Source: Marsupella aquatica (lineage: Eukaryota > Plantae > Marchantiophyta). Taken from it: a DNA stretch of 64,000 nucleotides. Positions 2,537 through 53,991 of the stretch are shown here, one piece after another. Within the stretch, counting starts at the first letter, position 1; the number at the start of each line of letters is the position of its first letter. The notes under the pieces were generated by a model that was not told the origin of the DNA, made no database searches, and saw only the letters and a program-made list of their open reading frames with translations. The stretch covers positions 9,115,839 to 9,179,838 of the forward strand of contig OZ316893.1 of assembly GCA_973895155.1 (NCBI GenBank), in the 5' to 3' direction. A program made the translations under genes and the position numbers.

Positions 2537-13428
<10,892 letters not shown>

Positions 13429-14342
13429 TGCTTTGTCAACCTTCGCCCTCGCGGGCGACTTTCCTTTCTGTCACTCGTCAACAATAACCGAAGGCTCCGC
13501 CAACAGACGACCTCCAACCCAGCAATGCTTTCTTGCTTCCACTTCTCGCACCGCAACATCAGCTAAGTACTGCAGCGCAAAGTACCGTTCCCTGCATTGG
13601 ATAAAGCAACGATAGAAATCAGATACAATGTCCTCTCTCGGCAAGCAGCCTCCCGGGCACAACTCCAAAAAAAAACTTCCGCCGGGAAAAAAACCACAAT
13701 CAAGCGCGAAGCGAATTTTGGGCCACAACGGCGCAAATAAAACAACTCAACAAAAACATGGTTCCAGTCCAGGACCACACCAGAGCAGCTTCACAACGCA
13801 ACAAACGACACACCTTGTTCTCCTCTTGTCCGAGCTTCCAGCTCCAAGCATTCTAAAAAAACAACAACAAAAACACGAGACGGTCTTACCTTCAGACTGT
13901 CGACGAGTTCCAGCGCTGATTCTCAATCAACCATCCAATCGACCACACAGCACTACTTGCGCGCGTCATCGTAAGTGAGGAGAGTCCAGTGCTCGTCTTC
14001 TTCGCCACCTGCGTACCGCGCTACATCCGTTGAACAAGCAGGGAAGCTCCGCGAATTCGGCTCTGCTGGTCCGTCGCGAAGAATCAATTTCCCCGTGTGC
14101 TCGAGCGACGACGCGGCCACAGAACTACGAGCGGAACTGTGGTCGTGACAACCATGGTACCATAGAGCTCGCGCTCGCGGCGCCCTTCATTCGACCTTCG
14201 AGTCCGTTCCGTTCCGTTCCTTTCCTTTCCTTTCCTTTCACGATGGAAGACGAAACCTACACGACGGATCGTGAAGCTACTACGGTGTTCGTTCAAGCGG
14301 CGACAGTGTTTTACGGGCGGGGGGAAAGACCGGCGGGCGGAT

Positions 14343-14978
14343 GGACGCTCACCCCGCGCTTTTTTCAAGAGCAACTGGGACCAACTTTACTAAAACCATT
14401 TTTTTTAATTTCTCACCCCCATGACTGATTGAACATAATTTACTCGGTTGCCCTGTAAAATGTAAATTAATCTACAGTACTTATTATGTTATTTCCTTGC
14501 AAGGAATCGGTGATCGGTGCACCAGGGATTACCTGTAGCTCTTGGCTCTTGGTGGGACTTAATTACTTAAACCATCACTAGCCGCCATGACAAAAAGCTG
14601 GACGCTCACCATGCGCTTTTTTCAAAGAGCAATTGGGACCAATTTACTAAAACCATTTTTTTTAATTTTTTCACCCCCATGATTGAACATAGTTACTCGG
14701 TTGCCCAGTAATTTTATCGACTTATCATGTTATTTCCTTGCAAGGAGTCAGTGTGCTAGGGATTATCGAAGCTCTTGGTGGGACTTAAACCATATCACTA
14801 GCTGCCATGACAAAAGCTGGACGCTCGCCCCGCGCTTTTTTCAAGAGCAACTGGGACCAACTTTACTTAAACCATTTTTTTTTATTTCTCACTTCCATGA
14901 TTGAACATAATTACTCAGTTCCTTTGTAAATTTACCCTGTAAATTTGAAATTTATCTACTTATTATGTTATTTCCTTG
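14343..14978. repeat. Tandem array of a ~210-260-bp unit, left part
   Basis: Unit GACGCTCACC..TTTTTCAAGAGCAACTGGGACCAACTTTACTAAAACCATTTTT..TTTCCTTGCAAGGAATC..CCATGACAAAAGCTG starts at ~14343, ~14600 and ~14820. The third copy is cut at CCTTG by the insertion at 14979. Confidence 0.9.
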
Positions 14979-17900
14979 TGTGGTAGAGTGGTCAAACTGT
15001 TAAAGAACACTTTAACCTCTAAAGACCTGAATTCGTTCCCTTTAAGAGTGAATGAAAAGCAAATTGGTACTAAAAAGAGCAAATAAGATGTTGATTTGGC
15101 ATAACCTTACCAAGGAGTTCTCTCTCCTGAGGATTGATAGTAATCAATGCACAAAAACTAATAATTAAAGAAAGGCATGGAAAAGGACTAGTAAGAATGC
15201 CTTATCAATTGACTCATGAGAAAAGATGATGGAAAATGACGATCCCTAGCAAATCAACAGGATTCTGGATTTTTAAGATTTGGAAGGCAACAGAGCTCAT
15301 AACATGGTCGAATTAGAATAGACATCAAACATTAACTAGAAATTGACATGGAGATCTAGCTATCAAACCAAGAATTCTTTCTGATCAACAAATGGTGACG
15401 GTACTAGAATGCTTGAATTGATATCTTCTCACACAAAGATTTCTAGATTGTCAAATTGATAACTTCTCAATCAAATTTAGATAATTACTCATGGGAAAGG
15501 AAACATTCCATTTCGACTACTAGAACAGCAGGAGTTCAATGCTACCTAGAATCATATGAGTAATTCAAATTGAAATCCAACTTCAAAGTATGATGGTAAA
15601 ATTTCTAAGTATTAACTTCTCAACAGGAGGAGTCTGCAGTTCTACTCACAGCAGGTCAAGGCTCAACAGGAGCACCTGAGGAGGAGCTTCTATGCTTCCA
15701 ACAGAAACTGAGAACTAAGGAAAAATGAATCTGTGTTCCTCCAAAGATACACAAAGGAAGGATCCCAAAAGTCACAAAGTGTCATGTCCGGTTTTCATGG
15801 AAGAAAAAGTAACTGTCAATCAAAATCCGGAAATGAGAACAAAGGAAAATCCGGAAATGGATGTAAGGCAAAATCCGGGTTTTGATTTCCGGTTCTACTA
15901 CTAAATCCGGATTTAGATCTTAGTCGGTTCCGGAAATGCTAACTAACTAACTAAAACAACTAATCTACTGAGCATCATCAACTACATCTACTCTAAGTGA
16001 CTCATGTGTAAGATCAACTGGACTAGCAGGTTTCAGAGGAGGAGATGTAACTAAACTCGCAGTAGCCTCCAAGTCCTTCAAATCAAAAGGTGTTTCGCGT
16101 GGACTGATCGTCGGAGGTGACACTGACGGAAAACGGAACTCAACCTTCTCAAATTCGGGTGGGGTGCCTCCTACTTCATTTTCATCTTGCAACACCGGAG
16201 ACGTTCCGGATTCCGGAATCCGAATTCGGGGAGGAGTCAACATGGACTTCGCATCCGAAATCACTTTCTCCATCTGCTCAAACGTTCCGGAAATCTTCTT
16301 GGCAAAGCGGTTATTGCACTCAATAACCTTAACAAGGGTGCCTGGGTTGGCTGTCGCTAAATACTTATCTATCAGGTTAGCTTCCAACAAGCTCAGGACT
16401 GGTACATGAAGTGCTTCTTGAACACTAGTAACTGCAGCATTCAGTAATTTCCGGATCTTCAGGTGTTCCTCCAACTTCTTCTGTGCAGCATCCAACTGGT
16501 CCACCAAAGAGTCAATCTTCTGTCTGTCCTTGAAGGCCTGATCCTCCAAGTCCCAGATCCGCTTCTTAGCCTGACTCTTGATCACCATGTCCAGGGTGGA
16601 AACGATGACAATCGGGCTGCAGTTGAGCATCTCATCAACCGTCCCAACAAGGTCCTCAAGTTGTTTCGTCTTTCCGGCCGCACTCTCCAAGAAAATCCGG
16701 ACATGCTCCAACTCTGCTGATGCCGTCCACTTCGAACTGGGGGTCACACCCGGAAGACTTCCTCTACTTTCCGGTCTCCGGACAGGTTCCGGAACTTCAA
16801 TAGGATCCGGTTCCAGACTCTGCACAAATTTCTTCTGCGTCCTGGGAGGTCGCACTTCCACAACCGGTTCTTCTTCAGACTCAGTCCCTTCAGGTGTTTG
16901 CCAATCCGGATCTCCGAGTTGGGCTAACATGGCTTGATTCTCATACTCCTCCGCTTCTTCATCTGTAAGAATCCGGTCCATTGCGTAAAGATTGGCTAGA
17001 TAGCAAGAAAGGGATGTGGGAGTCTTCAAATGAAGATTCCGGACCTGGTTGGCTATAACTTCCTCCAAAACTTTGGCCCAGGAAATCTTCTTCTCCCCTA
17101 TGTTAGCAGCAATAGTATTTCCAATCCGGATTATAACTCGTCGAGGCTTGGCAGGGGAAAGAAGTGGAAGCAAAAAGGACAGAACATCGTAAAACTCCTC
17201 ATTACAACACTGGGAAACCTTCCAACCGTCCTTCGGATCCACTTCACCATCAAAATAGTTATCCGCAAAGGCATTCTTGGAGGTCAGGAAGCCCTCTCCC
17301 TTCAAAGGCACATCCAAAAGAGAAGAGATAACTGCTGCAGTCCACTTTTCCAGTTTTGCTCTGATCGAATCCGGAAATTCCGAAGCAAGGGTTGTGCGAT
17401 TCTGGACCTCCTTCACGAATATTGCACTCTGGTATCCCCATGGCAGCTCCATCAACTTCGCACAGCCCATGGTCTCAAGGTTCCCCTGCAAGCGGTCCTT
17501 CCTTGTTGAATCCGTGGGAATTTCCGGTCGCAACGGCTTTTCGTTCACAACGACTGTCCGCTCCTTGGTCGTCCGCTTTGGTAGCGTCCGGATTCCGGAT
17601 TTGTCCGGGGCAAAATCCGGGTCCTTTCTCTTCACCAAAATGAGGAGATGGAGAGAAAGAATCCAAATTAAAATCCTTCCAAAATCCAAAATTCCCAATC
17701 GAACGATCATCCAATCCGGAAATCTGAATCAAGTCGCAAACTTCCCCTCTCAATCGAACGATCACCCACTTCCCCCGTAACGAACTTCCTTTCATCTATG
17801 GCCTCGAAACGGCAGCCTCGTCCGGCTCTAAGCTCTCCTATGATTCCTCGCAAAAGATTTCTGCAGCAGTTCGGTGGTGTGAGGAATGCTTGGTCTGGCG

Positions 17901-18176
17901 TGGTCTTAAGAACTCGGTTGCCAACTTCCGGTCTCCAGTCGGACGTCAGACTTATGGTTTTAATATTCATTCTCCCACGCCTACTCGCATGGCTCAACGG
18001 TGCCGTTACTTATAAGTTCCAAAAAATGGTGCTATCCGGATATTTCCGGATTCAATACTGCAAAGTAGTTTGTTATGGTCTTTTCCGGTCAAAGTATACT
18101 CCGTTAACCACTAAAAGTTGAAAATTTTTAAATTTTTGCACTTTTTAATTTCCTTATTTATAACCATGGTATCACA
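14979..18176. mobile_element. 3.2-kb TG..CA insertion, probably a very long solo LTR or an internally deleted LTR retrotransposon
   Basis: Starts TGTGGTA and ends TATCACA (imperfect inverted termini). 5-bp TSD CCTTG at 14974-14978 and 18177-18181. Removing it restores the host repeat TTTCCTTGCAAGGAATC. No second LTR copy or gag/pol is seen inside. Confidence 0.85.
15965..17710 (-). CDS. Uncharacterised 581-aa retrotransposon-associated protein (globular N-half, acidic/Pro linker, coiled coil)
   Basis: Intron-free ORF wholly inside the TG..CA insertion. Hydrophobic block KISWAKVLEEVIANQV..PTSLSCYLANLY, then a heptad-like stretch. No RT, integrase or protease motifs. Confidence 0.7.
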   Translation of the reverse strand: MIVRLGILDFGRILIWILSLHLLILVKRKDPDFAPDKSGIRTLPKRTTKERTVVVNEKPLRPEIPTDSTRKDRLQGNLETMGCAKLMELPWGYQSAIFVKEVQNRTTLASEFPDSIRAKLEKWTAAVISSLLDVPLKGEGFLTSKNAFADNYFDGEVDPKDGWKVSQCCNEEFYDVLSFLLPLLSPAKPRRVIIRIGNTIAANIGEKKISWAKVLEEVIANQVRNLHLKTPTSLSCYLANLYAMDRILTDEEAEEYENQAMLAQLGDPDWQTPEGTESEEEPVVEVRPPRTQKKFVQSLEPDPIEVPEPVRRPESRGSLPGVTPSSKWTASAELEHVRIFLESAAGKTKQLEDLVGTVDEMLNCSPIVIVSTLDMVIKSQAKKRIWDLEDQAFKDRQKIDSLVDQLDAAQKKLEEHLKIRKLLNAAVTSVQEALHVPVLSLLEANLIDKYLATANPGTLVKVIECNNRFAKKISGTFEQMEKVISDAKSMLTPPRIRIPESGTSPVLQDENEVGGTPPEFEKVEFRFPSVSPPTISPRETPFDLKDLEATASLVTSPPLKPASPVDLTHESLRVDVVDDAQ

Positions 18177-18181
18177 CCTTG

Positions 18182-18600
18182 CAAGGAATCAGTGTGCCAG
18201 GGATTATCGTAGCTCTAGGTGGGACTTAAACCATATCACTACATTAGTCGCCATGACAAAAGCTGGACGCTCACCCTGAGCTTTTTTCAAGAGCAACTGG
18301 GACCAACTTTACTTGAACCAATTTTTTTTAATTTCTCACCCACAGGCTTGATTGAACATAATTACTCGGTTGCCCACTTAGTGTATTATTTCCTTGCAAG
18401 GAATTGGTGCACCAGGGATTACCTGTAGCTCTTGGTGGGACTTAAACCATCACTACCAGCAATGACAAAAGCTGGACCCTCACCCTGCGCTTTTTTGAAG
18501 AGCAACTAGGACCACTTTACTAAAACCATTTTTTATTTCCCACCCTCGTGATTGAACATAATTACTCAGTTGCCCTGTAAATTTGTCTATTTATTATGTA
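18182..18600. repeat. Tandem array of the ~210-260-bp unit, right part
   Basis: Continues the interrupted unit (CAAGGAATCAGTGTGCCAGGG), with further copies at ~18265 and ~18475. Degenerate pieces recur near 19200-19470. Confidence 0.88.
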
Positions 18601-19980
18601 CAGGGACTGGGTGTACAAAAAAATATAGTTGGGAGTATGATTTTCCCTCACACTCCTAGCCCCCCTCTATAGGAATAGTGCAGGGTATTCTCATTGGCTC
18701 TCAAGTCCAAAACTCCTACATTTTATATGTAGTGTACAGCTTGGAATATGGTGTATTTGGGGGCTTGGGGTGTCAGAGGGAGTGATTGTACTTCCTACCC
18801 CTGGCCATGAAACCTTGCCCTAAGCATGGATGGATGAGGGGTTTGTTTTGCCAATCTCCATGGACTGTGACGCACACTCCTTCACTTTACACCCAAAGTT
18901 CACACTAATGCATTATCTTTGGCAGGATGCTCACTTCTGAGAAGGATGCCCTTGGTAGTTCGTGCATGAGCCATGACCTACCACTGTGTATGCTAATGGA
19001 AAACCATTTGTGAGCCGTCAATTAGAGCCCATTTACAGGTCACATTCTAGTCAAAACTATAAAGAGTGTTATCCGAGCAATTTTTTGATGTTTTGAGTCA
19101 GCCCATCTCAGCTTTAAAAATCCATGGGGGCTTCACTGAAAACCCCTCAGTCCATCCAGGCTGTACTTTCCCCGAATCAAACACAATCTCTAAGTTTTCA
19201 TGTAAATTAATCTACTTACTATGTTATTCCTTTGCAAGGAATCAATCGGCCTTAGATAACTCAAACAACTGGAATTTGCAGCTAAGATCTATACATGGGG
19301 CAGCTTAAAAATTTAAAAGTTTTGGGAGCAACTTAAGAAAGTTGTCCAATTTTGCATGTGATTCAGTTAAAAACAGTAATGAGAACCATATTAATTTTTT
19401 CACTCCCAAAAATTGAACAAAGTTACTCAGTTGCCCCGTAAGTTAATCTATTTACTATGTTATATCCTTGCAGCTAAGATTAACCTTGGGGGTAGGTTAC
19501 TAATTAAAACAGTTTTGGGGCAAAAAGTCTTTTGGGTAGCTTAGTAAAAAAACAGTTTACTAGAAAGGCTGCAACAAAGTCAGAGAACCAATTTACAAAA
19601 TAGGCCAAAAAAAGTTAAAGAGGATTAATTTAGTAGCAAGGGCTAAACAAAAGGGTTCACACAAAGGGTGGGACAGACATCTCACCTTTTTGTAGACTCA
19701 GATTTCATCTCAATCGTTACTTAGGTTAGGGACTGGTTGTTCTTGATGTAGAAGACTAATGGCGGCCCTTTCAGATCTGGTTTGCCCAAGCCTACATGGC
19801 AGTCGGTGGGTCCAGCAAGTAAAGGTTAAGAAATCCTGACAGTGAGAATGTCCATGTAGCAACAATGACATTTTTGGGAAGCTTGGTCGAAAAGTGGGAA
19901 GCTGGTTTTTATAACAACCATTTGAAGGGCACATTTCCTGTTATTCTGGTGAACTAGCTCAAAACCCGTGCGTTGCACAA

Positions 19981-20310: not shown

Positions 20311-21726
20311 AAAAGAGTCGGGCAGGGGAGAAGGGAAGAGGGAGGGAGGGAGGGAGTGGGGCGAGGCAGGGCCGGCCCGGGTCATTGGGGCCAGGAAGGA
20401 GGGTGGTGGGAGGTTGACCGCAAGAGTGTGGCAGTCGACGGTTGGCGCATGGGGCAAGGCAGCAGGGTGGTCGCCCCACTCGTAGTAGAGGGTGGCTGCA
20501 CAACATTTTACTTGCCTCGGCTCAGTGCTGTCGCCACGATGAGACTGCAATTGACCTCAGGAGCGGGTGTGAGGGCCATTTTTGGTCACTATTGCTTTGG
20601 TTCTTTTCCATATTGAATTTCTTTCACCCAAAATGGCCCTGTAAATTCAAATGACGACCACGGCAAAAAAAGGCGCAATTCCTTATTAGAGTTTTTGATG
20701 TTGTCAAATGTGGTTGTCCCTTTGTATATGTATCCCTTAACCTGTCACCCCAGCCAAGAGTGGTTTGGCCCCCAACCCCTTGTTATCTCATCCAAATATA
20801 TATAAAATTTTGCCAAGTATATTTGTTTTTATAAAATGATTTCATTCATATGAGTACCAAGGGGACTGGGTGTATACACTCTCCTTGCATTGCATGCACA
20901 TCAGGTGTACATTGGGGCAGGGTCAATACAAATAAGACAATGGTCAGGGAGGGATTAATTAAAGAGGGATAAAGAGTGTATTTGCAAATACAATGATGAC
21001 ATCAAAAGGAAGTACTGTACTTTGTACTCGCTAAAGTGATGAGGAATATCAAGAAGGATTCTGCTCCCTCATATTTTGCGGTGGATTTATTTTTATTTGT
21101 TCTCTTAGCTTTGCTTTGTATATGTGATTTCTTTCATTTGGCACGGACAACTGTAAATTTTGAATGACAACCACTTCAGAAAACGGCGCAACTGTGTATT
21201 ATAGGATTTAATGTCTAATGGGCCAAAGGGCCTTTGCAAATATCTATAAACTAATTTATTAGCACTAATAAGTAGACTATAAAAATACAACAAGAAATCG
21301 CCATAAAGTTTTAGAGGAGGGTTCACAAGGAATAAGGATCCTGGGATTTATTCAAGTTTGAGTCTCGGTTTGAAAATGTTTCAAGTCTGAATTTTCAACC
21401 ATAGTTGTGTTATTAAATATAGTAAGTTGTTAATGATCATTGGCAGTGGAAAGCTTGATGGTCTCCCCGCCATACTAATTGTTAAACATAGTGGACAATA
21501 ATTACAGACCCCCACTCGGGGTCCCTTCCAAAATTCCAGGCTCCACAACGCACCACATCATCACGGCACGTTGCAAACACGAAGAGACTTTTTTTTGGAT
21601 AAAATTAACTTTTGCATTCGTGTTTGTGGCAACTTTTCATTAAAAACTAGGATGTCATGCCGTAAAAAAGAATGTAAAAAAAACTGAAATGCAAATCAAA
21701 AGACAAAGATTGAGGTAAAACTGCCC

Positions 21727-21901
21727 TGTCGTGACATATAGTATCGAAGCCATAGTGTATCGAAAACATACAGTCACTGGCAAGGCATATGAGCAAGCTG
21801 CTAGCAACCAACATGCATAGAAAAAGTCCCATCACATTTACAAGTGCCAAGAAAAAGCAAATGAGGTGGTATGTACGTAGTGGAGGTGTAAACCTCTGTA
21901 T
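21727..21901 (-). repeat. Repeat B2 (175 bp), 3' end of the element
   Basis: Second copy of 22262-22436. Abuts A2 and ends ..CACGACA on the element strand. Confidence 0.95.
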
Positions 21902-22259
21902 ATAAAAGGTGTGATAGAAACAAGTGTACTGAAATCGAATCGAAAACCGGCGAGATGCCAAGATCGACCGGGAGCATCTAACGAATCACTGTGTGAATCC
22001 CGTGTACGGAACCGACGAGCACTGTCTAAGCTCTGTCGACAGCGATTCAAGAAGAACTGAAAACCCTCAAAGAAAGACATGCCCTAAGCAAGCAAAGTCC
22101 TGGCGTCACACTAACAAACACATTTGCTTCAAGAACGGCCCAGACTTGCTACAAGAACATGTCGCTAACTCAGGTAGTACACTAGCCCTAACTACATACC
22201 TAGCGGGCATGAGAGGGACATGCCGATGTGCATAAGAGGCACTGTCCCTCGGCATGACA
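21902..22259 (-). repeat. Repeat A2 (358 bp)
   Basis: Second copy of 31350-31707. Separated from B1 by only 2 bp (GC, 22260-22261). Confidence 0.95.
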
Positions 22260-22261
22260 GC

Positions 22262-22436
22262 TGTCGTGACATACAGTATCGAAGCCATAGTGTATCGAAA
22301 ACATACAGTCACTGGCAAGGCATATGAGCAAGCTGCTAGCAACCAACATGCATAGAAAAAGTCCCATCACATTTACAAGTGCCAAGAAAAAGCAAATGAG
22401 GTGGTATGTACATAGTGGAGGTGTAAACCTCTGTAT
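22262..22436 (-). repeat. Repeat B1 (175 bp)
   Basis: Matches 21727-21901 with 2 substitutions. Immediately preceded on the element strand by a G7 run (22437-22443). Confidence 0.95.
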
Positions 22437-22475
22437 CCCCCCCAGACCACAGCCAAAAGGAGGGCTGAAGAAAAG

Positions 22476-23918
22476 TCAGGTAGCACGTGGAGCACAGGAA
22501 GGGCAAAACCACAACCCTTCTGGCACCTGGGAAAGTTCAGGCCGAAGGCAGAAAAGATGGTACCCTCCATTGCAATTGTCACACAGCAGCATCTGGTCAG
22601 CATCATCAATTCGCAAACACACTTTGCAAGGGTAATCCACAGGTGGGATCCAAGTAGAAGTGACAATGGTGGGATCCAGGTTAGGTAGATGACAAGGGGC
22701 ACAATTCTTGGCATTGTCAGCAATTGTGCGCCCATCTGCCCCTTGTAACTCTAGCACTCCAGACGGTCGAATAGCTTTAACCCTGAGAATAGTACGACTG
22801 GTAGAGGTGTCCAGGGTGTCGTTAGCTTGCCGCTGCAAGTACACAAAATCTCCCACATCAAACTGCCTGACCTTGGGCTGAAAAGTGCCCCCTCGTGTGT
22901 GTGCATAACGCAGTGTGTCCCTGTGCTGTGCAATGGCCAAATTCTCCATGGCCATGGGCATAACCCTCCTGAATAGGGCAGCCCTCTCAGAGATCACATC
23001 AGACCAAGTCACAGCTGAATCCAAGTCCACCACGTGAAGCATGTGAGCAGCAATAGCAGAAGGTGGAACTGGGTGACGACCAAACAACAAGAAGTAGGGA
23101 GAAAAGTTAGACAGTGATGCATGTCTGGACATCCTATACCCCATGGCAATGTAGGGTAAGGCCAGGTCCCAATCCTCCTTGTTTTTGGTAAGGCAGATCT
23201 TCCGGAGGTCCTTCTTGCATGTCTGAACCATGCGCTCTGCCAAGCCATCTGCCTGTGGGTGATCTCGTGATGTCCGACGATGATCAATGAGGGCCTGAGC
23301 AAGCAGCTCCTGGAACTCTCCTCTAAACTCTGAGCCCTGGTCAGTGAGACATTCTGCACAAGCTCCAAAACGACTGAGAACTTGTTGCAGGAATGCCTGG
23401 CTGGTGCTACGGGAGATCTTATCCGGCAATGCCACAAGTTCTATCCACTTGGAGAAATGCTCTATCATGATCATGATGTAGAGATTACCCCGAGACGTGA
23501 GGGGTAATTCTCCAGCCAAATCACATGACCAGTGATAAAACATGCCCTGAATAGGGAGTGGATGAAGTGTGGGTTGCCGAGATGTGAAAGAAGTCCTCAC
23601 CCTATCACACTGTTCACACCGGGCAATAACATCTCGGACCTGGCCATGCATGCCTCTCCAATGATAATGAGGGACCAAGAGGCTATAAGTCCTCTTAACG
23701 CCAAAATGACCAAGCTCAGAATGTACCTTACGGATAAGGCCAACCCTCTCATGAATGGGTGGAACCACCACTTCCCTGTCTGGCAAGCAGCGCACGAGAT
23801 GATCTCCCTTCCACAAGTAACGCTTGGACCTTTGCTGAATGCGGTCTCTCTGGGCAACAGTAACATGTACGGGTACTCCCCATGCTGCAAAAATCTCACA
23901 GTGTCGTTGTCCTCCCAT
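22476..23918 (-). CDS. DDE integrase with C-terminal PHD finger (frameshifted continuation of pol)
   Basis: HHCC zinc motif HSELGH..CEQC; catalytic WSCDLAG, LTDQGSEF, GLAERMV; PYFLLFG. C4HC3 PHD CKVC..LLCDNCNGGYHLFC..WFCPSC at 22494-22628. Confidence 0.93.
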   Translation of the reverse strand: MGGQRHCEIFAAWGVPVHVTVAQRDRIQQRSKRYLWKGDHLVRCLPDREVVVPPIHERVGLIRKVHSELGHFGVKRTYSLLVPHYHWRGMHGQVRDVIARCEQCDRVRTSFTSRQPTLHPLPIQGMFYHWSCDLAGELPLTSRGNLYIMIMIEHFSKWIELVALPDKISRSTSQAFLQQVLSRFGACAECLTDQGSEFRGEFQELLAQALIDHRRTSRDHPQADGLAERMVQTCKKDLRKICLTKNKEDWDLALPYIAMGYRMSRHASLSNFSPYFLLFGRHPVPPSAIAAHMLHVVDLDSAVTWSDVISERAALFRRVMPMAMENLAIAQHRDTLRYAHTRGGTFQPKVRQFDVGDFVYLQRQANDTLDTSTSRTILRVKAIRPSGVLELQGADGRTIADNAKNCAPCHLPNLDPTIVTSTWIPPVDYPCKVCLRIDDADQMLLCDNCNGGYHLFCLRPELSQVPEGLWFCPSCAPRAT

Positions 23919-26900
23919 ATGTCCACCATAGGTTGGTCAACAACGTAGCATGGCAGCAAAGCAAGATAAGTAGATGCATGAAATGTAGGCAGGATGGAAA
24001 CCTGGTCAAAATCCTGCCGTGCATTTGAGGAATCATCAGAGGCAATCAAAGGGCTGCGGGACATAGTGTCAGCATTTTGATGTGTCACACCAGGCCTATG
24101 AATTACCTCAAAATCATACTCCTGGAGTATGAGCGCCCAACGAGCAAGCTTGCCAGTAAGCTTGTCGTTGGTCATCAACCACTTTAAGGGCTGGTGGTCG
24201 GTGTAGAGAACAAACCTGGTCCCATAGAGGTAGGGCCTGTAATGTATGACAGCCCACACAACAGCAAGGCATTCACCCTCATAAGAAGAATAATGACTCT
24301 CTGCCTGATTGTTGCTCCTGGATGCATAGGCAATGACGTACTCTTTACCTTCCTCATCAGGCTGGCCCAGAATGGCATCAATCCCAAGGGCACTCCAATC
24401 TGTGTGTAGCACAAAGACCTTGCTGAAATCAGGTCTTCTAAGCACCGGGTATTCTGAGAGCTTCTCCTTCAAAGTGACAAATGTTGCCTCAGCATTTGTA
24501 CTCCATGTCCAAGTCACATTCTTTTTCAACAAAGAGTACAATGGATGTGCAATGGTACTGAAATCTTTGATGTAGATCCGGTAGTAATTGCACAACCCAA
24601 TAAAGCTCCTAAGAGTGTGAACATCAGTAGGAGTGGGCATTTCCAGGATGGATACCACTTTGGCCCAGTGAGCCATGGTTCCATTTGGAAAAATGCGGTG
24701 CCCAAGGTATACTACTGATCTGACAGCAAATTCACACTTCTTGGGGTGTATCTTCAGGTTCACCTTCTTGAGCCTCATGAATAGCTCCTCAAGGTCAAGT
24801 AGATGCTGGTCAAATCCTTTGTTGTGGACCAACACATCATCAATGTAGCATTTCAGAAACTCAACACCTTGAAGAACGTGGTCCATGACTCTTTGAAAGA
24901 ATATGGGCGCATTCTTCAAGCCAAATGGCATCACCAACCACTCCCATAGTTGGTTACTACCATGGAAAGCTGTTTTCTTGCGATCCTTTGCAAGCAGCAA
25001 AATCTGGTTAAAGCCTTGCCTTAGATCCACAAGAGTGAAGATGTCTGAGTCTCCAATGCTGTCAAATAGCTCCTCTGGCCGTGGCATGGGGTACCTGTCC
25101 TGGGGTGTGACCAGGTTCAGTGGCCTGTAGTCCCCACACATGCGCTTCTCTGTCCACAATCCACTGGAATCCTTCTTTGCTGGCATCACTGTAGCTGCTG
25201 CAAAATCTGATGTAGATGGCTGAATAAGACCAGCTTCATATAACTCTTGGCACCTCTCATCCACCAGCTGCCACTCATGCTTACTCAAACGATGTCTCCG
25301 CCTGAAGATAGGTGTTTCATCAGCCAACTCAATGGAGAACTGCATGGTCTTGCACTTACCCAAGTCCTTCATAGAGAAAGCAAACACATTCTCATACTTG
25401 AGGAGCAAATTCAGCAGCTGGTCCTTCTGCCTTTTACTCAGGTGGTTGCCCATGATGAATGTGTAGTTGGCAACACTAGGAATAGGACCTGATGTACTCG
25501 TGCTTGAAGAGCCAAAAGTGCCAGCCTCTCCACTGTCCAAGCTGCTAGCATGCTGCTGATAATGTGATGAGGCCTCTCCAAGGCCTGTTGTACTTGTTGC
25601 TCTGGTCTGATCCACACCATGAAACTCAAAAATAATGTCAGCCACGTTACAAGGGATCTCCTCCCCCCCAACACTTGGACTGAAGCGGTGAGTGTTGAAT
25701 AGAGGTAAGTGCACCTGGTCTGGATGCCATGTAGCAGCACCATGGAGTGGTAGAGCTGGAACTCCTGGTGCGGGATGAATGTACATCTGAAGAAGGATGC
25801 AAGTGACCAAAAGCCAAGTGAGAGCATGGAGATCCATTACCCTACCAAGTAAAGCATTCCTGGCCAGCCTGGTGATGTGGGTGTGGCCTGTAGTACCGGA
25901 TTGGAAGCCCATAGCCCGTTCTCTCTCCTCAGGACTAGGTTCATCCCAAGTACTGGTAGAATGTCGATAAACCAGGCCAGGACCATCACCCTGAAAGGCA
26001 TGTGCACCTAGAAAGGATACAAATGTAGGCCAAGCAGCACGGGGCTGTCTAATGGTATTGGCTGGATACCAAGGTGCTGGCTCTTGCCGTGTAACTGGTT
26101 GGCAAGAACTGTCAGGATCCAAAATCTGGTCCACTGTGAGGTTAGTGTCCCTGGATGTGTGGTGAAGAGCTAACTCCAACAAGGAAGGTGGTGCAAGGTT
26201 AGTCCAAAAGTTACGAAGACGATGTGCATAAGAACCACAGTGCACTGCATCAATGAGAAGGGGTGGTCCCAAGTAGTGTTGGACCACACTGAAATCTTCT
26301 TTGACCTGTGGACGCTGATCAAACTGAGATGGAGTATTCTCAATGATATAACCAACAGCAGGATAAAGGGATTGAGCCCAGGTGAGAATCTGAACCAATG
26401 CTGTGAAAAGGCCAGAACGAGAATCATGCAGTCCAGCATCGTGACCAGCAGCTAAAAACCCTTGGCATTCCCAACCAGCTATGATCAAATCAAGGGAGCC
26501 AAGAAGGGTTAAGTGCCGGTGCTGGACAAGCTGGATATATGGAGGAAAGAAAGAAAATGCAGACTTCCATGCACTGTGTGGAAACTGCTGGGGAAATCGC
26601 TTTGAAAATTCCAGCAGACGGGATTCAGCCACTTGCCTTGCACCTGGATCAATATCCACATAGATGTACTGCTTCACCACCATGCCAAACTGTAGGAGAG
26701 CTTCCAGGCCTGTAGAAATGCCACCAAAAAGCTCAAGCAATGTAAGGCCATCTGAAGGAGGAGTCCATGTAACTGGTGCGCTCAAGATTGGGGCTATTGG
26801 TTGGCCATTGTGCTGCCCAAGATCCTCAAATTTGCGCAATGCAGCCACCAAAGGTCCATGGGCTGCTTGGAGCCGTTGTACCACCTCTGGTTGATGATCC

Positions 26901-28282
26901 ACGCTGCTGGAAAGTGCTGCTATATGTGCAGCAGCATGTGCAGTAGCCACCTCATCGTCATCCTCCTCAATCCAATCTTGTAATGGGTGGTTGACATAGG
27001 TAGCTGTGTGCACTGCTTTCAACACACAGTGGTGAGCCATAGGTGTATGGGCACCATGCAAATCAAGTGGAATGTAGCCCAAGTGTGAGCCATCAGTATG
27101 CCAATCAACTCTGTAGTATGCATGCTCATGCCAGTTGTCAATGGTAAAACCTGGTGGGAACAAAGCCTCCTGGCCAATGAGCACATCATACGTAGTGGCA
27201 TTGGTAACCAAACATCTGACTGGGAAATGCAGTTCCTGATCTGTACCTCCATTAAAAGTGAGAGTGAGTAAAGTAGAACTCTCACCCAGCACATCCTCCA
27301 CAGTGCCACTAGCAGTCCGAATGTGCCACTTGGATTGCTGTAAGTGATCAGTCAACAGTCCCATCTTCTTGGCAAACTGAATGCCCAATATCACTGGTTG
27401 AGCACCTGTGTCTAGCATGACCACCTGAGGAGTGTGACCCTCCAACTTGACCACGGAATTCCTGTTGTCAACAATGGCAATGGTGGTGGAAACTGAAGTC
27501 CTGTCACTAGGCACCACTCTCGGCAAATGATGAGGTACCTTGTGAAGGGAGTTAGTGTCCACGGTCTTTCCACTCAACAACATAGCCAGGAAAGATGGAG
27601 CAGCATGACCAGAATCAAATGTAGCTCTGGTCACACAATCAGCAGCAATCGGTACTGGGGCAGCCAAACCAATGGAAACATGTAAAGGAGAAGAAGAAGG
27701 TCCAGTATGTACATGAGATTGGACCTCCAAAACCGGTGTCACAGGGGCTGATGAAGAATGCAGTGAACCCTCTAGCGCTCTGATGACAGCTCTAGCATCC
27801 AGCTGTAAATCATGGCAACTGAAAAGTGGAGTTGTAAGAATCCTTTGTGCCATACTGGAGGTGAAATGCTCAAGCAGCTCAGGAGAAACAACTCCCTGTG
27901 AAATGTCAGCAGCACCTGGTGGTGGAATGGATGTAGCTGCAGCTCCCTCCCCCCTCGCCAACAAGGTGCGCTCTTCAGCAAGTGTGAGTGGCTGAAAAGA
28001 TTGGGGCATGATAGCCTGAGCTCCCCTGGCTCTAGTTATAGGACTGGCAAGACCATCAGCCTGTACAATGCGGCGTGTGGGAGCAATACGGGAGGCAGCA
28101 CTAGCCTGTTGGTAAGCAAAATAGGAAGGGCAGAATGAATCTGAAAATTCTGCTGTAAGGCCAGGCTGTGGAGCAGAGGACAGCACACACTCACCCATAT
28201 GAGCATCAAATGGCAAGCCATAGAAAGAGCGGGGTAGAGGTGCTGAACTGTCAGTGGTGCCTGGGCCAGGGATGGGTTGCAC
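23597..28282 (-). CDS. Pol polyprotein: aspartic protease, C5-cytosine methyltransferase, reverse transcriptase, RNase H
   Basis: Protease VMLDTGA..YDVLIG (~27170-27420). MTase motifs at ~25820-26750. RT KRMCGDYRPLN, VMPFGLKNAP, YIDD (~24840). RNase H LHTDWS, YEGECLAV, YTDHQPL. The reading frame shifts to the integrase ORF near 23870. Confidence 0.93.
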   Translation of the reverse strand: MQPIPGPGTTDSSAPLPRSFYGLPFDAHMGECVLSSAPQPGLTAEFSDSFCPSYFAYQQASAASRIAPTRRIVQADGLASPITRARGAQAIMPQSFQPLTLAEERTLLARGEGAAATSIPPPGAADISQGVVSPELLEHFTSSMAQRILTTPLFSCHDLQLDARAVIRALEGSLHSSSAPVTPVLEVQSHVHTGPSSSPLHVSIGLAAPVPIAADCVTRATFDSGHAAPSFLAMLLSGKTVDTNSLHKVPHHLPRVVPSDRTSVSTTIAIVDNRNSVVKLEGHTPQVVMLDTGAQPVILGIQFAKKMGLLTDHLQQSKWHIRTASGTVEDVLGESSTLLTLTFNGGTDQELHFPVRCLVTNATTYDVLIGQEALFPPGFTIDNWHEHAYYRVDWHTDGSHLGYIPLDLHGAHTPMAHHCVLKAVHTATYVNHPLQDWIEEDDDEVATAHAAAHIAALSSSVDHQPEVVQRLQAAHGPLVAALRKFEDLGQHNGQPIAPILSAPVTWTPPSDGLTLLELFGGISTGLEALLQFGMVVKQYIYVDIDPGARQVAESRLLEFSKRFPQQFPHSAWKSAFSFFPPYIQLVQHRHLTLLGSLDLIIAGWECQGFLAAGHDAGLHDSRSGLFTALVQILTWAQSLYPAVGYIIENTPSQFDQRPQVKEDFSVVQHYLGPPLLIDAVHCGSYAHRLRNFWTNLAPPSLLELALHHTSRDTNLTVDQILDPDSSCQPVTRQEPAPWYPANTIRQPRAAWPTFVSFLGAHAFQGDGPGLVYRHSTSTWDEPSPEERERAMGFQSGTTGHTHITRLARNALLGRVMDLHALTWLLVTCILLQMYIHPAPGVPALPLHGAATWHPDQVHLPLFNTHRFSPSVGGEEIPCNVADIIFEFHGVDQTRATSTTGLGEASSHYQQHASSLDSGEAGTFGSSSTSTSGPIPSVANYTFIMGNHLSKRQKDQLLNLLLKYENVFAFSMKDLGKCKTMQFSIELADETPIFRRRHRLSKHEWQLVDERCQELYEAGLIQPSTSDFAAATVMPAKKDSSGLWTEKRMCGDYRPLNLVTPQDRYPMPRPEELFDSIGDSDIFTLVDLRQGFNQILLLAKDRKKTAFHGSNQLWEWLVMPFGLKNAPIFFQRVMDHVLQGVEFLKCYIDDVLVHNKGFDQHLLDLEELFMRLKKVNLKIHPKKCEFAVRSVVYLGHRIFPNGTMAHWAKVVSILEMPTPTDVHTLRSFIGLCNYYRIYIKDFSTIAHPLYSLLKKNVTWTWSTNAEATFVTLKEKLSEYPVLRRPDFSKVFVLHTDWSALGIDAILGQPDEEGKEYVIAYASRSNNQAESHYSSYEGECLAVVWAVIHYRPYLYGTRFVLYTDHQPLKWLMTNDKLTGKLARWALILQEYDFEVIHRPGVTHQNADTMSRSPLIASDDSSNARQDFDQVSILPTFHASTYLALLPCYVVDQPMVDIWEDNDTVRFLQHGEYPYMLLLPRETAFSKGPSVTCGREIISCAACQTGKWWFHPFMRGLALSVRYILSLVILALRGLIASWSLIIIGEACMARSEMLLPGVNSVIG
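25820..26750 (-). other. C5-cytosine DNA methyltransferase domain inside pol
   Basis: Motif I LELFGGIS, II YVDID, IV LIIAGWECQG (catalytic Cys), V DSRSGLF, VI YIIENT, VIII AHRLRNFW, IX ERERAMGF, X RNALLGRVMD, all in canonical order. Confidence 0.9.
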
Positions 28283-29835
28283 GTGACCGCCGGTTGAGAA
28301 GGACCAGCAGAGGCAGTTGACTTGCCTTTGATGTTGGCAAGTTGGGCACGTAGGGACTCAATCTCATGAGTCAGAGACTGGAGTTGAGTTGCCTGTGCGT
28401 TGTGAGCCTCCTTTTGAGCTAGTTGCTTTGGTTGCTTCTTGGGCGGTTTGTTGGCACTGGATGCTTTGCCACTGGAAGGAGGAGCAGTTGATGTAGTAGG
28501 AGCCCTCCTAGCTGGTGGGGGAGTGGAAGCAGGAGCAGGAGGAGGGGCCTGCTGGCGTAGCTGCTTCCTCTCTGGGAATTTGGCAAAACAAACTGCCTCC
28601 AAGTGACCCACTTTTCCGCAAAAATCACAAGACAGGTCCTCAGCAACAATATCACAGTCATTAGCCTTGTGATTGGGGTTACCACAGTAGTTGCAAGATG
28701 GCAGCATGAAAGCAGCATGGGCTGGCTTGGTCTTGGAACCATACTGTGGCACACGGGAAGGGGTGGCCAGTGTAGGGGCAGCAGCCCGGTACCTGGATCG
28801 CGGTGGACGTGCAATACTGGCCTCATAATGTGCATGGGCCAACTCAAGTTTCTCAGCAGTGTCATAGACATTGAGCAGGGTGTAGCTGTCTCCAAACTCT
28901 GAGAATACTTGCTGCAACACTTGCGAATGGAGAGCTAGTGTGCCCTCCAATGCGCGAAGATAGCGATGAGCAGCTTCCAGGTCAGTGATGCTCTGGGTGT
29001 CCTCCTTAAGCTTGAGAAGCCGACGATACATCATCTTCAAGGTTTCATCGCGTTGCCTCACAAAGGTGGCCAACTGCATGATTTTGTCAGCACTCTTGAT
29101 GGGGAATTCCAATTCAAGAACCTGGAAAAACTCAGCCACTGGATCAGCAAAGGCAGGGGAATCAATGGTGGGAGAAATGCCTGATGTAGCCTGTGCCAAG
29201 ATAGTGGGAGTAACTAGCGCAGTGGTAGGAACTGGAGTAGGAGGGGAAGTGGCAGGAGCAGCAGCATGGGCTGCAATGGCATTCTGTAATGCCAATTGTG
29301 AGGCAGCCGCAATTGCACTGGCATAAGCAGGGTTAGGCAATTGTGTGACAGCAAGCAGCCGTTGAGAGTGCTGCTCATACACATCCAAAGCCTCGTGGTG
29401 CACATACTTGGCTAGCTGCTTAAATGCAAAAGCATTTGTGAAATTGCTGCCGTACTTCAACTCCAATTCATAAACGACAGTGTAGAAAGTGGATTTGAAC
29501 TCACGTAAAGAAACAGTGCCTGGCCGCCCGCTGAAGCGCTCAATGCGGCCAGATGAGTGGCTAACATCCATGCTGTATGTCGGTGAAGCTGGAACAACCA
29601 CTGATGCAGAAGGGGTAAATGGCAAGGAAGTGGTAACAGGCTTCGGGTTAGTGGTGAAGCAACCGCCAAATTGAGCAGAAGGATTGCGTGGTGTGGGTGC
29701 TGCTGCTGTCTGCGGATGTCGTCGAAATTGCCGAGACTCCAATGAAATTGGCACCAATGGTCGTGGATCACTCCGTAAATGGTACCTGGGTGTCGGTGGT
29801 GATGTGCTGCTACCTCCTGGCTCGTCGGCTGACAT
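28036..29835 (-). CDS. Gag-like protein with two CCHC zinc knuckles
   Basis: IERFSG..LREF N-terminal capsid-like motif and QRDETLKMMYRRL major-homology-like motif. Knuckles CNYCGNPNHKANDC and CDFCGKVGHLEAVC. Confidence 0.9.
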   Translation of the reverse strand: MSADEPGGSSTSPPTPRYHLRSDPRPLVPISLESRQFRRHPQTAAAPTPRNPSAQFGGCFTTNPKPVTTSLPFTPSASVVVPASPTYSMDVSHSSGRIERFSGRPGTVSLREFKSTFYTVVYELELKYGSNFTNAFAFKQLAKYVHHEALDVYEQHSQRLLAVTQLPNPAYASAIAAASQLALQNAIAAHAAAPATSPPTPVPTTALVTPTILAQATSGISPTIDSPAFADPVAEFFQVLELEFPIKSADKIMQLATFVRQRDETLKMMYRRLLKLKEDTQSITDLEAAHRYLRALEGTLALHSQVLQQVFSEFGDSYTLLNVYDTAEKLELAHAHYEASIARPPRSRYRAAAPTLATPSRVPQYGSKTKPAHAAFMLPSCNYCGNPNHKANDCDIVAEDLSCDFCGKVGHLEAVCFAKFPERKQLRQQAPPPAPASTPPPARRAPTTSTAPPSSGKASSANKPPKKQPKQLAQKEAHNAQATQLQSLTHEIESLRAQLANIKGKSTASAGPSQPAVTCNPSLAQAPLTVQHLYPALSMACHLMLIWVSVCCPLLHSLALQQNFQIHSALPILLTNRLVLPPVLLPHAALYRLMVLPVL

Positions 29836-31349
29836 GCTGCATGCTCACCTGGGTGCCAATGGGAAAGAAACTGACAAGAAAAAGAAATGGCAGCCCCAAG
29901 GCTAGGAAATAAACGGTGCGAGGCAGAAATGTGTCGAATGTGTAAACACACAGAAAAATTGTCACAGAGAAAAACCGTCACCGGAGAAAAAGGACCCTTA
30001 AAACCACCAAATTGTCCCTTGTCGCACTTACCTATGTGTATACATAGGCGAAGCAAAGAATAAGGGAAAACGGGCCCCTAGAACGTGAAAGGAGGGCCCC
30101 CTTTACGTGTATACCTCGGGCCCCTTGTGGACCCGGAAACTGGCAGCAAAGGTATGCAAAAGTAGGTGGGACGGTCGTCGCACGGCGAAGGAGCAAGAAG
30201 GCCAAAAACTAAAAGAAAAGGGCCCCAATTAAGTGTATACACATGGGGGCAGGGCGTCGGCAGAAAAATGGTCGGCCGCAGTGCCCTATGCACATGCCCT
30301 CATGTGAGTCGAAAGACTCTGCAATCGTCGCGCAGCGGACGAGCGACCATGGAGGAACAGAAAAAGAAATAGAAGAAAAACGGCTTTGGCAAGGACGAAA
30401 GGAAAAGACGAGACCCAAGGCGAGGAAAAAGAAAAACGGGCCTTTAAGTGCTCTAGCCCTGCATAGGGCTTTGCGCACCCTTCCCCTCCTCTAATGTTCC
30501 ATAGGGCCTCGTGCCCTTGTCCTCGCCCCTGACAAAAGCACTCCCGTGTGAGGGAGTTTGAATTGAACTCCCCTGAGTCCCCTCCCCTGGTTTAATGCTG
30601 CCTAGGGCCTCGTGCCCTTCTTTCGCTTCCCCCTCCCCTCCTTAATGCTTCATAGGGCCTCGTGCCCTCTCCTGGCACACTCGCGCTGCCTTATGCTCGG
30701 CTCCCCTTCCCCCATGCTTTAATTCTCCATAGGGCTTCGTGCCCTCTGTCCTCTCGCTTGCTTATGGCAGGGCAAAAAGAAAGGGAGTCGAGGCAGGAAA
30801 AACGGGCGAGAAAATGCCGAAAAAGGGAAGAAACATCCCGGATTGAGGAGGGACTACGGCCGGTAAAGGGAGATACAGCCGAGGCAAGGGCATGGTGCCC
30901 TATGCACGGCCTGTGCAGGGCGTCGCGAGGCAACAAAACGGGCTCAACGGCAGCCGTGGCCGAAAAGTGGCAACAAACACAAAACGGCCCCAAAAGCAGT
31001 CGAGGCAACGGTTGATGCAACGTCGGCAGCAGCAGGTTGTGGCGGGAATGTGAAGGGCCAGCGGCCTACAAACCACGGGTTGCAGTCGGGAGGTGGTCGT
31101 GCGGCAAACGGCAGTGACAGTCGGAAGCAGCAAAGGAGTCGCGGATGCAACCGGAAAGGGAACTCCTGACCCCTTCGGAAGCATGGATATGTGTATACAC
31201 TTAAGTATACACATAACCACATAAACCCATAACTTTCATTCCGTCGCTCCAATGTTCGTCAAAGAAATTGCAATGGCTTCACCAAAAATTGTCGAAATCG
31301 CCACGAGCAATCTTCTTCCCGTCACCGCTAACTCGACAGTTCTTCTTGA

Positions 31350-31707
31350 ATAAAAGGCGTGATAGAAACAAGTGTACTGAAATCGAATCGAAAACCGGTG
31401 AGATGCCAAGATCGGCCGGGAGCATCTAACGAATCACTGTGTGAATCCCGTGTACGGAACCGACGAGCACTGTCTGAGCTCTGTCGACAGCAATTCAAGA
31501 AGAACTGAAAACCCACAAAGAAAGACATGCCCTAAGCAAGCAAAGTCCTGGCGTCACACTAACAAACACATTTGCTTCAAGAACGGCCCAGACTTGCTAC
31601 AAGAACATGTCGCTAACTCAGGTAGTACACTAGCCCTAACTACATACCTAGCGGGCATGAGAGGGACATGCCGATGTGCATAAGAGGCACTGTCCCTCAG
31701 CATGACA
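31350..31707 (-). repeat. Repeat A1 (358 bp), 5' end of the element
   Basis: Matches 21902-22259 with about 7 substitutions by eye. Confidence 0.95.
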
Positions 31708-52300: not shown

Positions 52301-53991
52301 AGCAGAAAGGTAATTCTGTGTATGAAAGAGTTGAGAAGTAGAAAGGATGCAAGATATGAGCAATGTGCCGGAACAGAGGTCTATTTGTCGCTGTGTGCAG
52401 ATTATGTTGACATTTTTGCCAACAAAACACTTACTCTGAGGGAAAAAGTGGTTCTTTGTGGAAAAGTCTCATTTTTATTGAGATTGTGGCGATTATGGGT
52501 GTTCCATGGAAATCACCAAGTAGGGGGCAACAGACAGAAGATTACTATGAGCAATATGGTCTCTATGCAAACATTCTTGGATGTTCAAATGTCATTGCAC
52601 TTTGCAGTGCTTCTCATTATCCAATTTCGAGATCATTTCCCTGGTTTACCTATCCCTTTGCATTTAACCGGTTCAGATAGTTGTGAGAAATTTTTCTCCA
52701 AAGTGGGAGGAATGAAAGGAACAGAACGCTGTTATGATGTGGCTGAATTGGTAGATTGCGCCACATCATTAAACCGCTTAGCAGAAATGGATTTAACTGA
52801 TGGAATCCATGGTATTGGGAAGAGTCATAAAAAACATAAAAACATTTGGATGAAAATACATTTTCCAGAGGGATATCAAGATGCAGATTTCACAGATTAT
52901 AGTGGCATCAATACCAATGATGAGATAGTGATAGCATTGAAAGAAGGTTTTTCTTTGGCCCAAGATGCAGCTACTCTAGTTCAAATGAACCCCTCCACAT
53001 CATGCAGGAATTGTCTGTGGTGGACATCACCTTGGGTAGTAGAGGCAAAGGGAAGGGACCAAGGAGGTTGGTGTGACATTATAGTGGAGACTTTGCCTGT
53101 GGAAGACCAACCTGAATCAGAGCAACAGCCACATCTTGTGGTGGGCTCCTCTGCTGCTGGTATTACAGAGGATATAGTTGAAGGAGATGGGGTGGCGGAT
53201 GAAGTTATTGCCCAAGGAGAACTCTAGGGAACTATCCGTGAATTGTGTGCTGAGTTGAATGAAGGTCCAGTAGTTCTTGGACAGCCCAAATGGGTTCCCA
53301 TGGTTAGTTGTGACAATCGTTATATATACAAAAGTACATTGGTGAGTCAACTAGCTGGAAATCCTAGTCTTAGTAAGGATCGATTAACCAGGGTGAAAAA
53401 CATAGTGTTTATTTCAATAATCTGGTTGATAAACGATCAGATCAAGAAGGGGTTCCAACAATGTTCATGTCTTATGGTATGGACTGTGGAGTGTATTTTG
53501 TAGCAGATCCACAACCTGGTAAAGAAACCAGGTCTCAAGGTCTACTAAAAGCATTGTCAAGGAAGGGAAAAGGACAACCTACCTCAACCTCTGGAAGAAA
53601 AGTTTCAAAGAAGGGAGGCAAAGGTGAAGCTGTGTCTGTAGGATCCATTCCAAGAGTGGAAAAGTATGTTTGGTGGATTGGAAGAGTTCAAATGATTCGG
53701 AAAAAATATAACAACAAATGGGGAAGATGCAGGGAACCTATTGACTTACTTGATAGGCCTGGCAAAGTGGATGATGGATCAGCTGTGTGTGAAGTACTGT
53801 TCAATTGGTTCAGTCCCTGTAGTGGGAGAACAAAATTTCGATATGATATGTGTGATCCTCAATGGATTGATTTGGACTGTGTGATATCCACAGTGAGCCT
53901 TTCAATAGCTCCAGCTACTCCTAATGTGTTTGTCTTGCATGATCATGATGCAAGTTTACTTGATGATTTTGTAAAGAACAAGATCATATGA
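49397..53991 (+). pseudogene. P-element/THAP9-like DDE transposase, C-terminus disrupted
   Basis: 1276-aa ORF with LAEDETCVK (~51575), HASDGD (~51930), DYIHNAKKLIN (DxxH, ~52105), DRQNWTSAQRICS and GSDSCEKFFS (~52680). After TAG 53225-53227 the same frame stays open, then a frameshift near 53400 leads into ORF 53461-53991. Confidence 0.8.

Follow-up and report, generated by a model that had tools for sequence, protein, structure and literature searches.

The Locus and Its Repeats

The 64,000-nt stretch of Marsupella aquatica DNA analysed here (the window) contains a 9,981-bp Ty3/Gypsy retrotransposon on the minus strand that starts with TG at position 31707 and ends with CA at 21727. Its repeats are split. 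In element orientation, A1 (31707-31350) and A2 (22259-21902) are 358 bp each and align without gaps with seven differences, while B1 (22436-22262) and B2 (21901-21727) are 175 bp each and align without gaps with two differences. A 2-bp GC (22261-22260) lies between B1 and A2, and A2 adjoins B2 with no spacer. Both pairs are far beyond chance (BLAST E-values of 1e-180 and 9e-87), and no further copy of A or B was found in the window. Given the near-identity of the ungapped pairs, the window copy is young. The repeat coordinates, lengths and 2-bp gap in a sequence-only reading of the window were accurate to the base, and the order it reported, that of the split direct repeats of PAT and Ngaro elements, was also borne out. 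It had overlooked the Dnmt3-like methyltransferase domain, the PHD finger, the G-run ahead of B1 and the predicted self-priming stem behind A1. The features of the element, all on the minus strand, are as follows.

31708-31711, minus: left 4-bp target-site duplication, GGGC when read along the element (from the sequence and the family test)
31350-31707, minus: A1, 358 bp, starting TGTCATG; inferred last part of U3 plus R-U5
31493-31507, minus: upstream arm of a perfect 15-nt stem; predicted RNA 5' end (about 31506) and self-primer
31337-31351, minus: downstream stem arm; predicted primer-binding site at 31349-31338, directly after A1
29845-31349, minus: 5' leader of about 1.5 kb; a 41-nt repeat occurs four times at 30478-30746
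28036-29844, minus: gag frame of 602 aa between stops; CCHC zinc knuckle present (PF00098 at E 0.0024, not reaching the curated cut-off)
27161-27451, minus: aspartic protease (PF13975, 2e-6)
25778-26755, minus: Dnmt3-like C5 cytosine methyltransferase domain (PF00145, E 0.003)
24692-25153, minus: reverse transcriptase core (Pfam, 1.7e-27)
24116-24505, minus: RNase H (Pfam, 1.2e-36)
22476-23936, minus: integrase frame with H2C2 finger, DDE core and PHD finger (PHD at 22628-22494)
22437-22443, minus: G7 run directly before B1, predicted polypurine tract
22262-22436, minus: B1, 175 bp, starting ATAC and ending CACGACA; inferred first part of U3
22256-22265, minus: palindrome core GACA-GC-TGTC joining B1 to A2; predicted integrase cut site
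21902-22259, minus: A2, 358 bp
21898-21905, minus: A2/B2 joint TTAT/ATAC, inferred ligation scar
21727-21901, minus: B2, 175 bp, ending in CA
21723-21726, minus: right copy of the 4-bp duplication, GGGC (from the sequence)

The element sits in another high-copy repeat, which forms its flanks (21500-21726 and 31708-31900). Four public runs yielded contigs over the entire element and its flanks; none of these contigs spans the full repeat set, so copies cannot be typed from them. In all four runs there are also contigs joining the two flanks without the element, and this empty-site joint has one base more than the 4-bp duplication of the window allele predicts, a difference not counted as evidence either way because the flank is a divergent multi-copy repeat. 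Over the leader (29828-31215) contig depth, a rough measure, drops 10- to 100-fold in the four runs, which suggests that the leader differs between subfamilies.

Elsewhere in the window, two intronless ORFs of 1287 and 204 aa without a Pfam family lie at 49364-53991 (plus strand), and their acidic motifs presumably recall a P-element/THAP9-like DNA transposase. The region 14320-19472 is probably another mobile element; it holds a 587-aa ORF (17728-15965, minus strand), also without a Pfam family, and on either side of this ORF lie families of 41-92-nt repeats at intervals of about 210-260 bp. A multi-exon host gene at 59583-63858 (plus strand) encodes an ABC1 atypical kinase (Pfam, 4.6e-38) with an Ala/Ser-rich, plastid-transit-peptide-like N-terminus. 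The tandem duplication at 45029-46492 repeats about every 730 bp, its pieces being 89-96% alike.

Coding Content

The window copy is frameshifted in gag near 28.3 kb and between the integrase frame and pol near 23.9 kb. Among named solved structures, Ty3-G Gag-Pol is the best match for the reverse transcriptase-RNase H region (E 5e-65) and Ty3-G likewise for the integrase (1e-20). The integrase matches the Pfam families rve (1.9e-14) and Integrase_H2C2 (1.2e-13), with a DDE triad of D127, D187 and E222 as numbered from window position 23900; at its C-terminus Pfam matched a PHD finger and no chromodomain family. The best solved-structure match of the methyltransferase domain is DNMT3A (E 1.3e-6), and the position of the catalytic Cys is kept (GWECQ versus GSPCN).

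No tyrosine-recombinase Pfam family was matched by the three long ORFs or by 17 further element ORFs of at least 100 aa. Thus the DDE integrase without a recombinase that had been noted from the sequence stands on the rve match and on 20 ORFs. That reading had also proposed a convergent or hybrid replication mode. Convergence is the better word, as reverse transcriptase, RNase H and integrase all match Ty3 best and no recombinase family was matched in these ORFs; a hybrid has no support. By its enzymes the element is Gypsy, without two full LTRs, and is not of the tyrosine-recombinase type. Of the features of Gypsy membership, it has the domain order, the TG..CA ends with a 4-bp duplication and, as predicted, the primer sites.

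The nearest named integrase is that of the liverwort Calypogeia fissa (86% identity), followed by those of Klebsormidium (50-56%; in K. nitens these are unnamed proteins) and Haematococcus (49%). Matches of the methyltransferase region further include Marchantia, Closterium, Sphagnum and chlorophyte proteins, with no K. nitens protein among the matches listed. In all, the named relatives come from Calypogeia, Marchantia, Sphagnum, Closterium, Haematococcus and Monoraphidium; none was found among viral contigs. Three Marchantia proteins (P0133, P0155 and P0195) are among the closest relatives of the element's methyltransferase domain, having such a domain at 36-40% identity and no reverse transcriptase family listed. 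Through them, a link between bryophyte host Dnmt3-like genes and the element clade is possible.

End Structures of Related Copies

To survey the ends of related copies, the best 80 of 539 confirmed loci, with integrase identities of 64-81%, were taken from short-read metagenome contigs. Fifteen of the 80 were dropped as duplicates of the same insertion (integrase identity of at least 95% and shared flanks), leaving 65 distinct loci. These loci represent a related family rather than the window's genome; A and B of the window have no DNA-level match to them.

Downstream of the coding region, 34 of the 65 distinct loci have B-A-B (five of them damaged), 17 have B and then the flank, 3 have B-A without B2 and 11 are unreadable. 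Both ends could be read in 12 loci and the window, giving 10 copies with A-ORFs-B-A-B and 3 with A-ORFs-B. None of these 13 copies carries A+B at both ends, and the mirror form A-B-A-ORFs-B was seen 0 times against 10 for A-ORFs-B-A-B. At the 5' end, B was found neither after nor before A1 (0 of 16 ends). One locus (L051) was left out of the both-ends set as its 5' end is rearranged, with an inverted A before a truncated A1 (3110-3637) and a B2 that ends after 14 bp.

The split layout is therefore family-wide. The sequence-only reading had named full A+B LTRs at both ends of most copies as the result that would make the window copy a one-off rearrangement, and no related copy has them. An ordinary A+B LTR element, with the window copy as an isolated rearrangement, a tandem insertion or an error of assembly, is hardly credible, even though A2+B2 does resemble a 533-bp TG..CA LTR and the survey draws on related loci rather than on the window's genome. 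Against it stand the 34 distinct related loci, in different flanks and all B-NN-A-B, the 5' ends lacking B beside A1, duplications that enclose the whole unit and the identical layout published for Klebsormidium. At the level of the family this reading is already refuted.

Some loci are altered in other ways. L071 contains a 2.26-kb copy with an internal deletion (9603-11859) in which A, the primer site, the integrase tail and B-A-B are retained; the duplication of this copy matches at three of four letters, and it is a candidate non-autonomous form. L080 has a partial extra B ahead of a full B-A-B (11443-13181). Loci L081-L086 are more distant. They are eukaryote-type retrotransposons from metagenome-assembled genomes of prokaryotes, in which they probably ended up through mis-binning of contigs. 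In one of them, L085, no methyltransferase domain was found, and some members of the clade may thus lack this domain. No evidence of a circle is drawn from the circular path of contig L081, which could reflect an assembly collapse.

Target-Site Duplication and the Internal Palindrome

The TG..CA ends and 4-bp duplication noted from the sequence were confirmed, the latter across the family. Over 13 copies, 40 of 52 letters of the 4-bp duplication match and 6 copies are exact, compared with 0-2 exact copies for duplications of other lengths; mismatched flank pairs reach at most 22 of 48 letters where 36 were observed. Duplications of 2, 3, 5, 6 and 7 bp were rejected on this family flank test. 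A recombinase-type crossover at the GC was also rejected, since the right flank does not start with GC and the duplication is 4 bp. L014 and L015, two of the 12 full-length loci, lack a duplication and are possibly chimeric.

The TG and CA found at the ends of the element also sit inside the likely LTR, B-GC-A, as GACA-GC-TGTC. The spacer is 2 bp long in 38 of 38 rows, one row being a duplicate locus. Its letters are GC in 13, AC in 12, GT in 6, AT in 4 and others in 3, a variety that would mostly be expected from C-to-T decay of GC. In the distant loci the same palindrome lies 56-108 bp behind a G-run in all four that reach that far (46-53% integrase identity), the contigs of L085 and L086 ending before the position. 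Two of these four palindromes are perfect (16 and 20 bp), and L082 shows B-GC-A-B. Based on this constancy, the internal palindrome is predicted to be the site cut by the integrase.

Predicted Primer Sites and the Probable Reverse-Transcribed LTR

A run of four or more Gs stands directly before ATAC, the first bases of B, in 52 of 56 distinct loci and is the predicted polypurine tract. A tRNA-type TGG is absent directly after A1. Instead, 31351-31337 is the perfect 15-nt complement of 31507-31493 inside A1, where 2000 shuffles reach no more than 11 nt. Ten of 13 related loci have a stem of 10-16 nt at the same place with both arms changed relative to the window, and two of the related loci (L038 and L056) have paired changes of their own in both arms. 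Stems of other sequence are found in distant loci L081 (13 nt) and L083 (12 nt), while the remaining 3 of the 13 related loci and L084 have no long stem. When the 191-nt segment was folded, the minimum-energy structure lacked the stem and the centroid formed it (z of -1.0, not significant). Given its covariation, the stem is predicted to be a self-priming site of the Tf1 type located after A1.

The G-run and the stem bracket B-GC-A, so the reverse-transcribed LTR is likely B-GC-A and not A+B. With standard reverse transcription, such primer sites would yield a cDNA of the form [B-GC-A]-ORFs-[B-GC-A], and the apparent LTR A2+B2 would be a permuted copy. Accordingly, A+B as the functional LTR was rejected, and with it the view, offered as equivalent from the sequence, that A2+B2 is one complete LTR and the other is split around the ORFs.

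The A2/B2 Joint

The A2/B2 joint consists of the end of A, in the form found ahead of the primer site, and the start of B, in the form found behind the G-run. Its length is altered in 16 of 33 distinct copies, classed by eye and belonging to the related family (64-81% integrase identity) rather than to the window's genome, compared with about 3.5% expected. The expectation derives from 22 background indels in 5,015 bp of B1-B2 comparisons, or about 3.5% per 8-bp window. Among the altered joints, 8 lack 2 bp, 2 lack 1 bp, 4 gain 1 bp and 2 have larger losses. The excess gives p of 4e-15, or 1.5e-5 without the 2-bp class. Eight of the 16 are losses of one AT unit, which could also be attributed to slippage, and 17 of the 33 joints have the exact length, a higher number than error-prone joining would have to produce.

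On an integrase tree of poor resolution (34 of 52 inner branches open), joint types have no signal (15 changes versus 15.8 in shuffles, 31% of which are as low), nor does B-only versus B-A-B (15 changes versus 14.4), whereas a control trait, the length class of A, does (4 changes versus 10.7; 0 of 1000 shuffles). The one remaining strongly supported sister pair, L008 and L009, has a common joint shorter by 2 bp. In L071 and L020 the joint departs from the A1 end of the same copy. In L075 (from 3985 onward) the element breaks off precisely where A2 ends and is followed by 655 bp of its own pol in inverted orientation. Given this variability, we infer that the A2/B2 joint is a scar made anew at each insertion. 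Two-LTR circles have been attributed to end joining (PMC7197481, in the part available).

A Model for Integration and Its Alternatives

Starting from the layout, the domains, the duplication length and the constancy or variability of the four joints, all of which are direct observations, the best model is an internal cut at the palindrome of the left LTR, insertion with a 4-bp stagger and joining of the true cDNA ends; we regard it as reasonably probable. Under this model transcription would begin near 31506, within A1, and the first 12 or so bases of the RNA would prime the minus strand after A1 in the manner of Tf1, with R lying in A2. The transcript start in A1 and the end in or after A2 that the sequence-only reading predicted would fit this anatomy. 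The plus strand would begin at the G-run before B1, giving a linear [B-GC-A]-ORFs-[B-GC-A] whose ends (ATAC.. and ..TTAT) would carry no TG or CA. The integrase would then nick after CA on both strands of ACA-GC-TGT, leaving two CA-3' ends with 2-nt 5' overhangs. These would have the form given by 3' processing and would be joined to the target 4 bp apart. The free A end would be ligated to the free B start either before insertion (as a two-LTR circle) or after it (as break repair), and the outcome would be A-ORFs-B-GC-A-B between 4-bp duplications. Cutting of both sites, or a one-LTR circle, would lead to a dead-end A-ORFs-B, the form seen in a third of copies.

The weakest step is the choice of site. 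Two identical sites in the cDNA predict A-B-GC-A-ORFs-B as often as A-ORFs-B-GC-A-B, and the count is 0 versus 10, so an internal-cut model needs an extra asymmetry. The left site would have to be preferred, perhaps since the LTR of the plus-strand strong-stop product would become double-stranded much earlier than the right one. The same count led to the rejection of a two-LTR circle that is opened freely (10:0, p of about 0.001). A circle, the kind of intermediate that the sequence-only reading associated with tyrosine-recombinase elements, survives as one of two step orders that fit.

A route like that of PAT and Ngaro but with a DDE enzyme would account for the asymmetry in a different way. 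Here the RNA would run from A1 into B2, B1-GC-A2 would template or splint a circle, the A2/B2 joint would be copied from RNA and the integrase would open the new junction, a restriction to one junction that could explain the 10:0. The repeat order is indeed that of PAT, Ngaro and VIPER (PMC4157794, PMC6681497 and PMC8547959, as far as these sources were available), for split-repeat elements a model with annealing between repeat portions has been cited, half of the joints are exact, and L008 and L009 have a common variant. However, this route has no need for a conserved G-run ending at B or a self-priming site starting after A, and a copied joint should be inherited, whereas the tree signal is absent and the joints of L071 and L020 depart from their own A1 ends. 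We therefore think it unlikely, though it is the main competitor for the full layout. Still less probable is a linear route with ordinary 3' processing, in which extra template switches would give a blunt GC-A-ORFs-B-GC-A-B-GC and two bases would be trimmed from each end. Two bases beyond CA are what end processing usually removes, and a route of this kind requires no internal cutting and has no asymmetry problem; yet no priming or stop signal adjoins the TG or CA, the G-run and the stem mark other positions, and both the variable A/B joint and the A-ORFs-B class are left unexplained.

For the A-ORFs-B class alone, the chances are close to even, if slightly below, that no second integration route was involved and that B1 recombined with B2 once the element had inserted, or that the assembly collapsed. 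As direct repeats, B1 and B2 are separated by about 470-535 bp and have exact stretches of 31 bp at the median, and B-only copies are slightly, but not significantly, younger by two proxies (p of 0.08 and 0.09). On the other hand, the B-only end recurs in separate contig sets (L003/L006, L027/L032 and L042/L044), duplications are kept in L072 and L022, and a solo A+B occurs at 0 of 80 loci, though the loci were chosen by their integrase.

Relation to Known Elements

The split layout on a Gypsy element is not new, as it was published once, unexplained, for KnitGypsy-Dnmt3 of Klebsormidium nitens, described as having a DIRS-type repeat structure with Gypsy domains (Fig. 4c legend, de Mendoza et al. 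2018, PMC5890265, seen in part). Both elements have Gypsy domains, a Dnmt3-like domain in Pol and A-coding-B-A-B repeats (PMC5890265); the comparison is with the published description, and the relatives of the window element have a wider host range. The text, legend and supplement words of PMC5890265, in the parts available, give no ends, duplication, primer sites or mechanism for KnitGypsy-Dnmt3. It is the only source for a Gypsy element with a split layout in the available parts of the literature searched, which lacked most subscription papers and Repbase, and the only one in that literature with the name KnitGypsy. With figure images and bioRxiv supplements excluded, the same literature held no account of primer sites, palindrome or joint for the family, and the element family is not mentioned in the best 12 of 22 matching passages of 10.64898/2026.05.21.726589. 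What appears to be new beyond the published layout is the G-run, the putative self-priming stem, the palindrome and the variable joint, together with the mechanism proposed from them.

Split direct repeats are otherwise described for tyrosine-recombinase elements (PMC4157794, PMC8547959, PMC6681497 and PMC7192593, each seen in part). The window element is like PAT, TOC, Ngaro and VIPER/TATE in its A1-ORFs-B1-A2-B2 order and near-identical pairs, but where PAT/Ngaro-type elements have a tyrosine recombinase it has rve, TG..CA ends, a 4-bp duplication, a Gypsy reverse transcriptase and apparently standard primer sites. A methyltransferase is also present in some DIRS/PAT elements, there of the adenine type (PMC5890265). 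With the Tf1/sushi group and moss Tcn1 the element has in common the Gypsy order, the lack of a tRNA-type site and a stretch of the 5' repeat that pairs with the bases after it (PMC7175516 and PMC6317226, in the parts available). In Tf1-type self-priming the first bases of the RNA pair with the primer site and RNase H then removes them. Unlike the window element, Tf1/sushi elements have two full LTRs with their ends as the integrase sites, and the window element has a PHD finger and no chromodomain match.

In vitro, the integrase of foamy virus cuts both strands of a palindromic LTR-LTR junction and leaves a 5' 2-nt overhang (PMC1180852, in the part available). The double cut at a CA-NN-TG palindrome is common to both systems, being predicted in the case of the window element. 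However, the foamy-virus palindrome is made by joining of cDNA ends (PMC1180852), whereas that of the window element is encoded in the RNA, inside the putative U3. In the proposed model the joined cDNA ends would, unlike those of foamy virus, become an internal scar. Among bacteria, circle-junction insertion of the IS3/IS30 type uses a DDE enzyme on abutted inverted ends with a short spacer; these are DNA transposons without reverse transcription, unlike the window element.

Implications

Taken together, we lean, by a small degree, towards an old, green-lineage-wide Gypsy clade in which the integrase site moved from the cDNA ends to a palindrome inside U3. Every productive insertion would then need internal double-strand cutting by a DDE enzyme and joining of cDNA ends. 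For most retroviruses the two-LTR junction is a dead end; in this clade it would be a fixed part of a living element, and DIRS-like split repeats would have formed without a tyrosine recombinase. Productive use of two-LTR junctions, or internal cutting by integrase, is an old and disputed question of retrovirology, and evidence for the two-LTR junction route has so far been in vitro or has concerned a side route (PMC1180852, in the part available). A natural family built on the internal-cut route, if true, would give exact predictions for the RNA start, the cDNA ends and the cut site. It would also offer an easy way of deriving split direct repeats, formerly thought to be a mark of tyrosine-recombinase elements, from an ordinary LTR. 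Annotation tools that require two full TG..CA LTRs (a criterion in the available part of PMC6317226) would miss the element family, and the Gypsy clade carrying a methyltransferase and a PHD finger may be under-counted in bryophytes and green algae.
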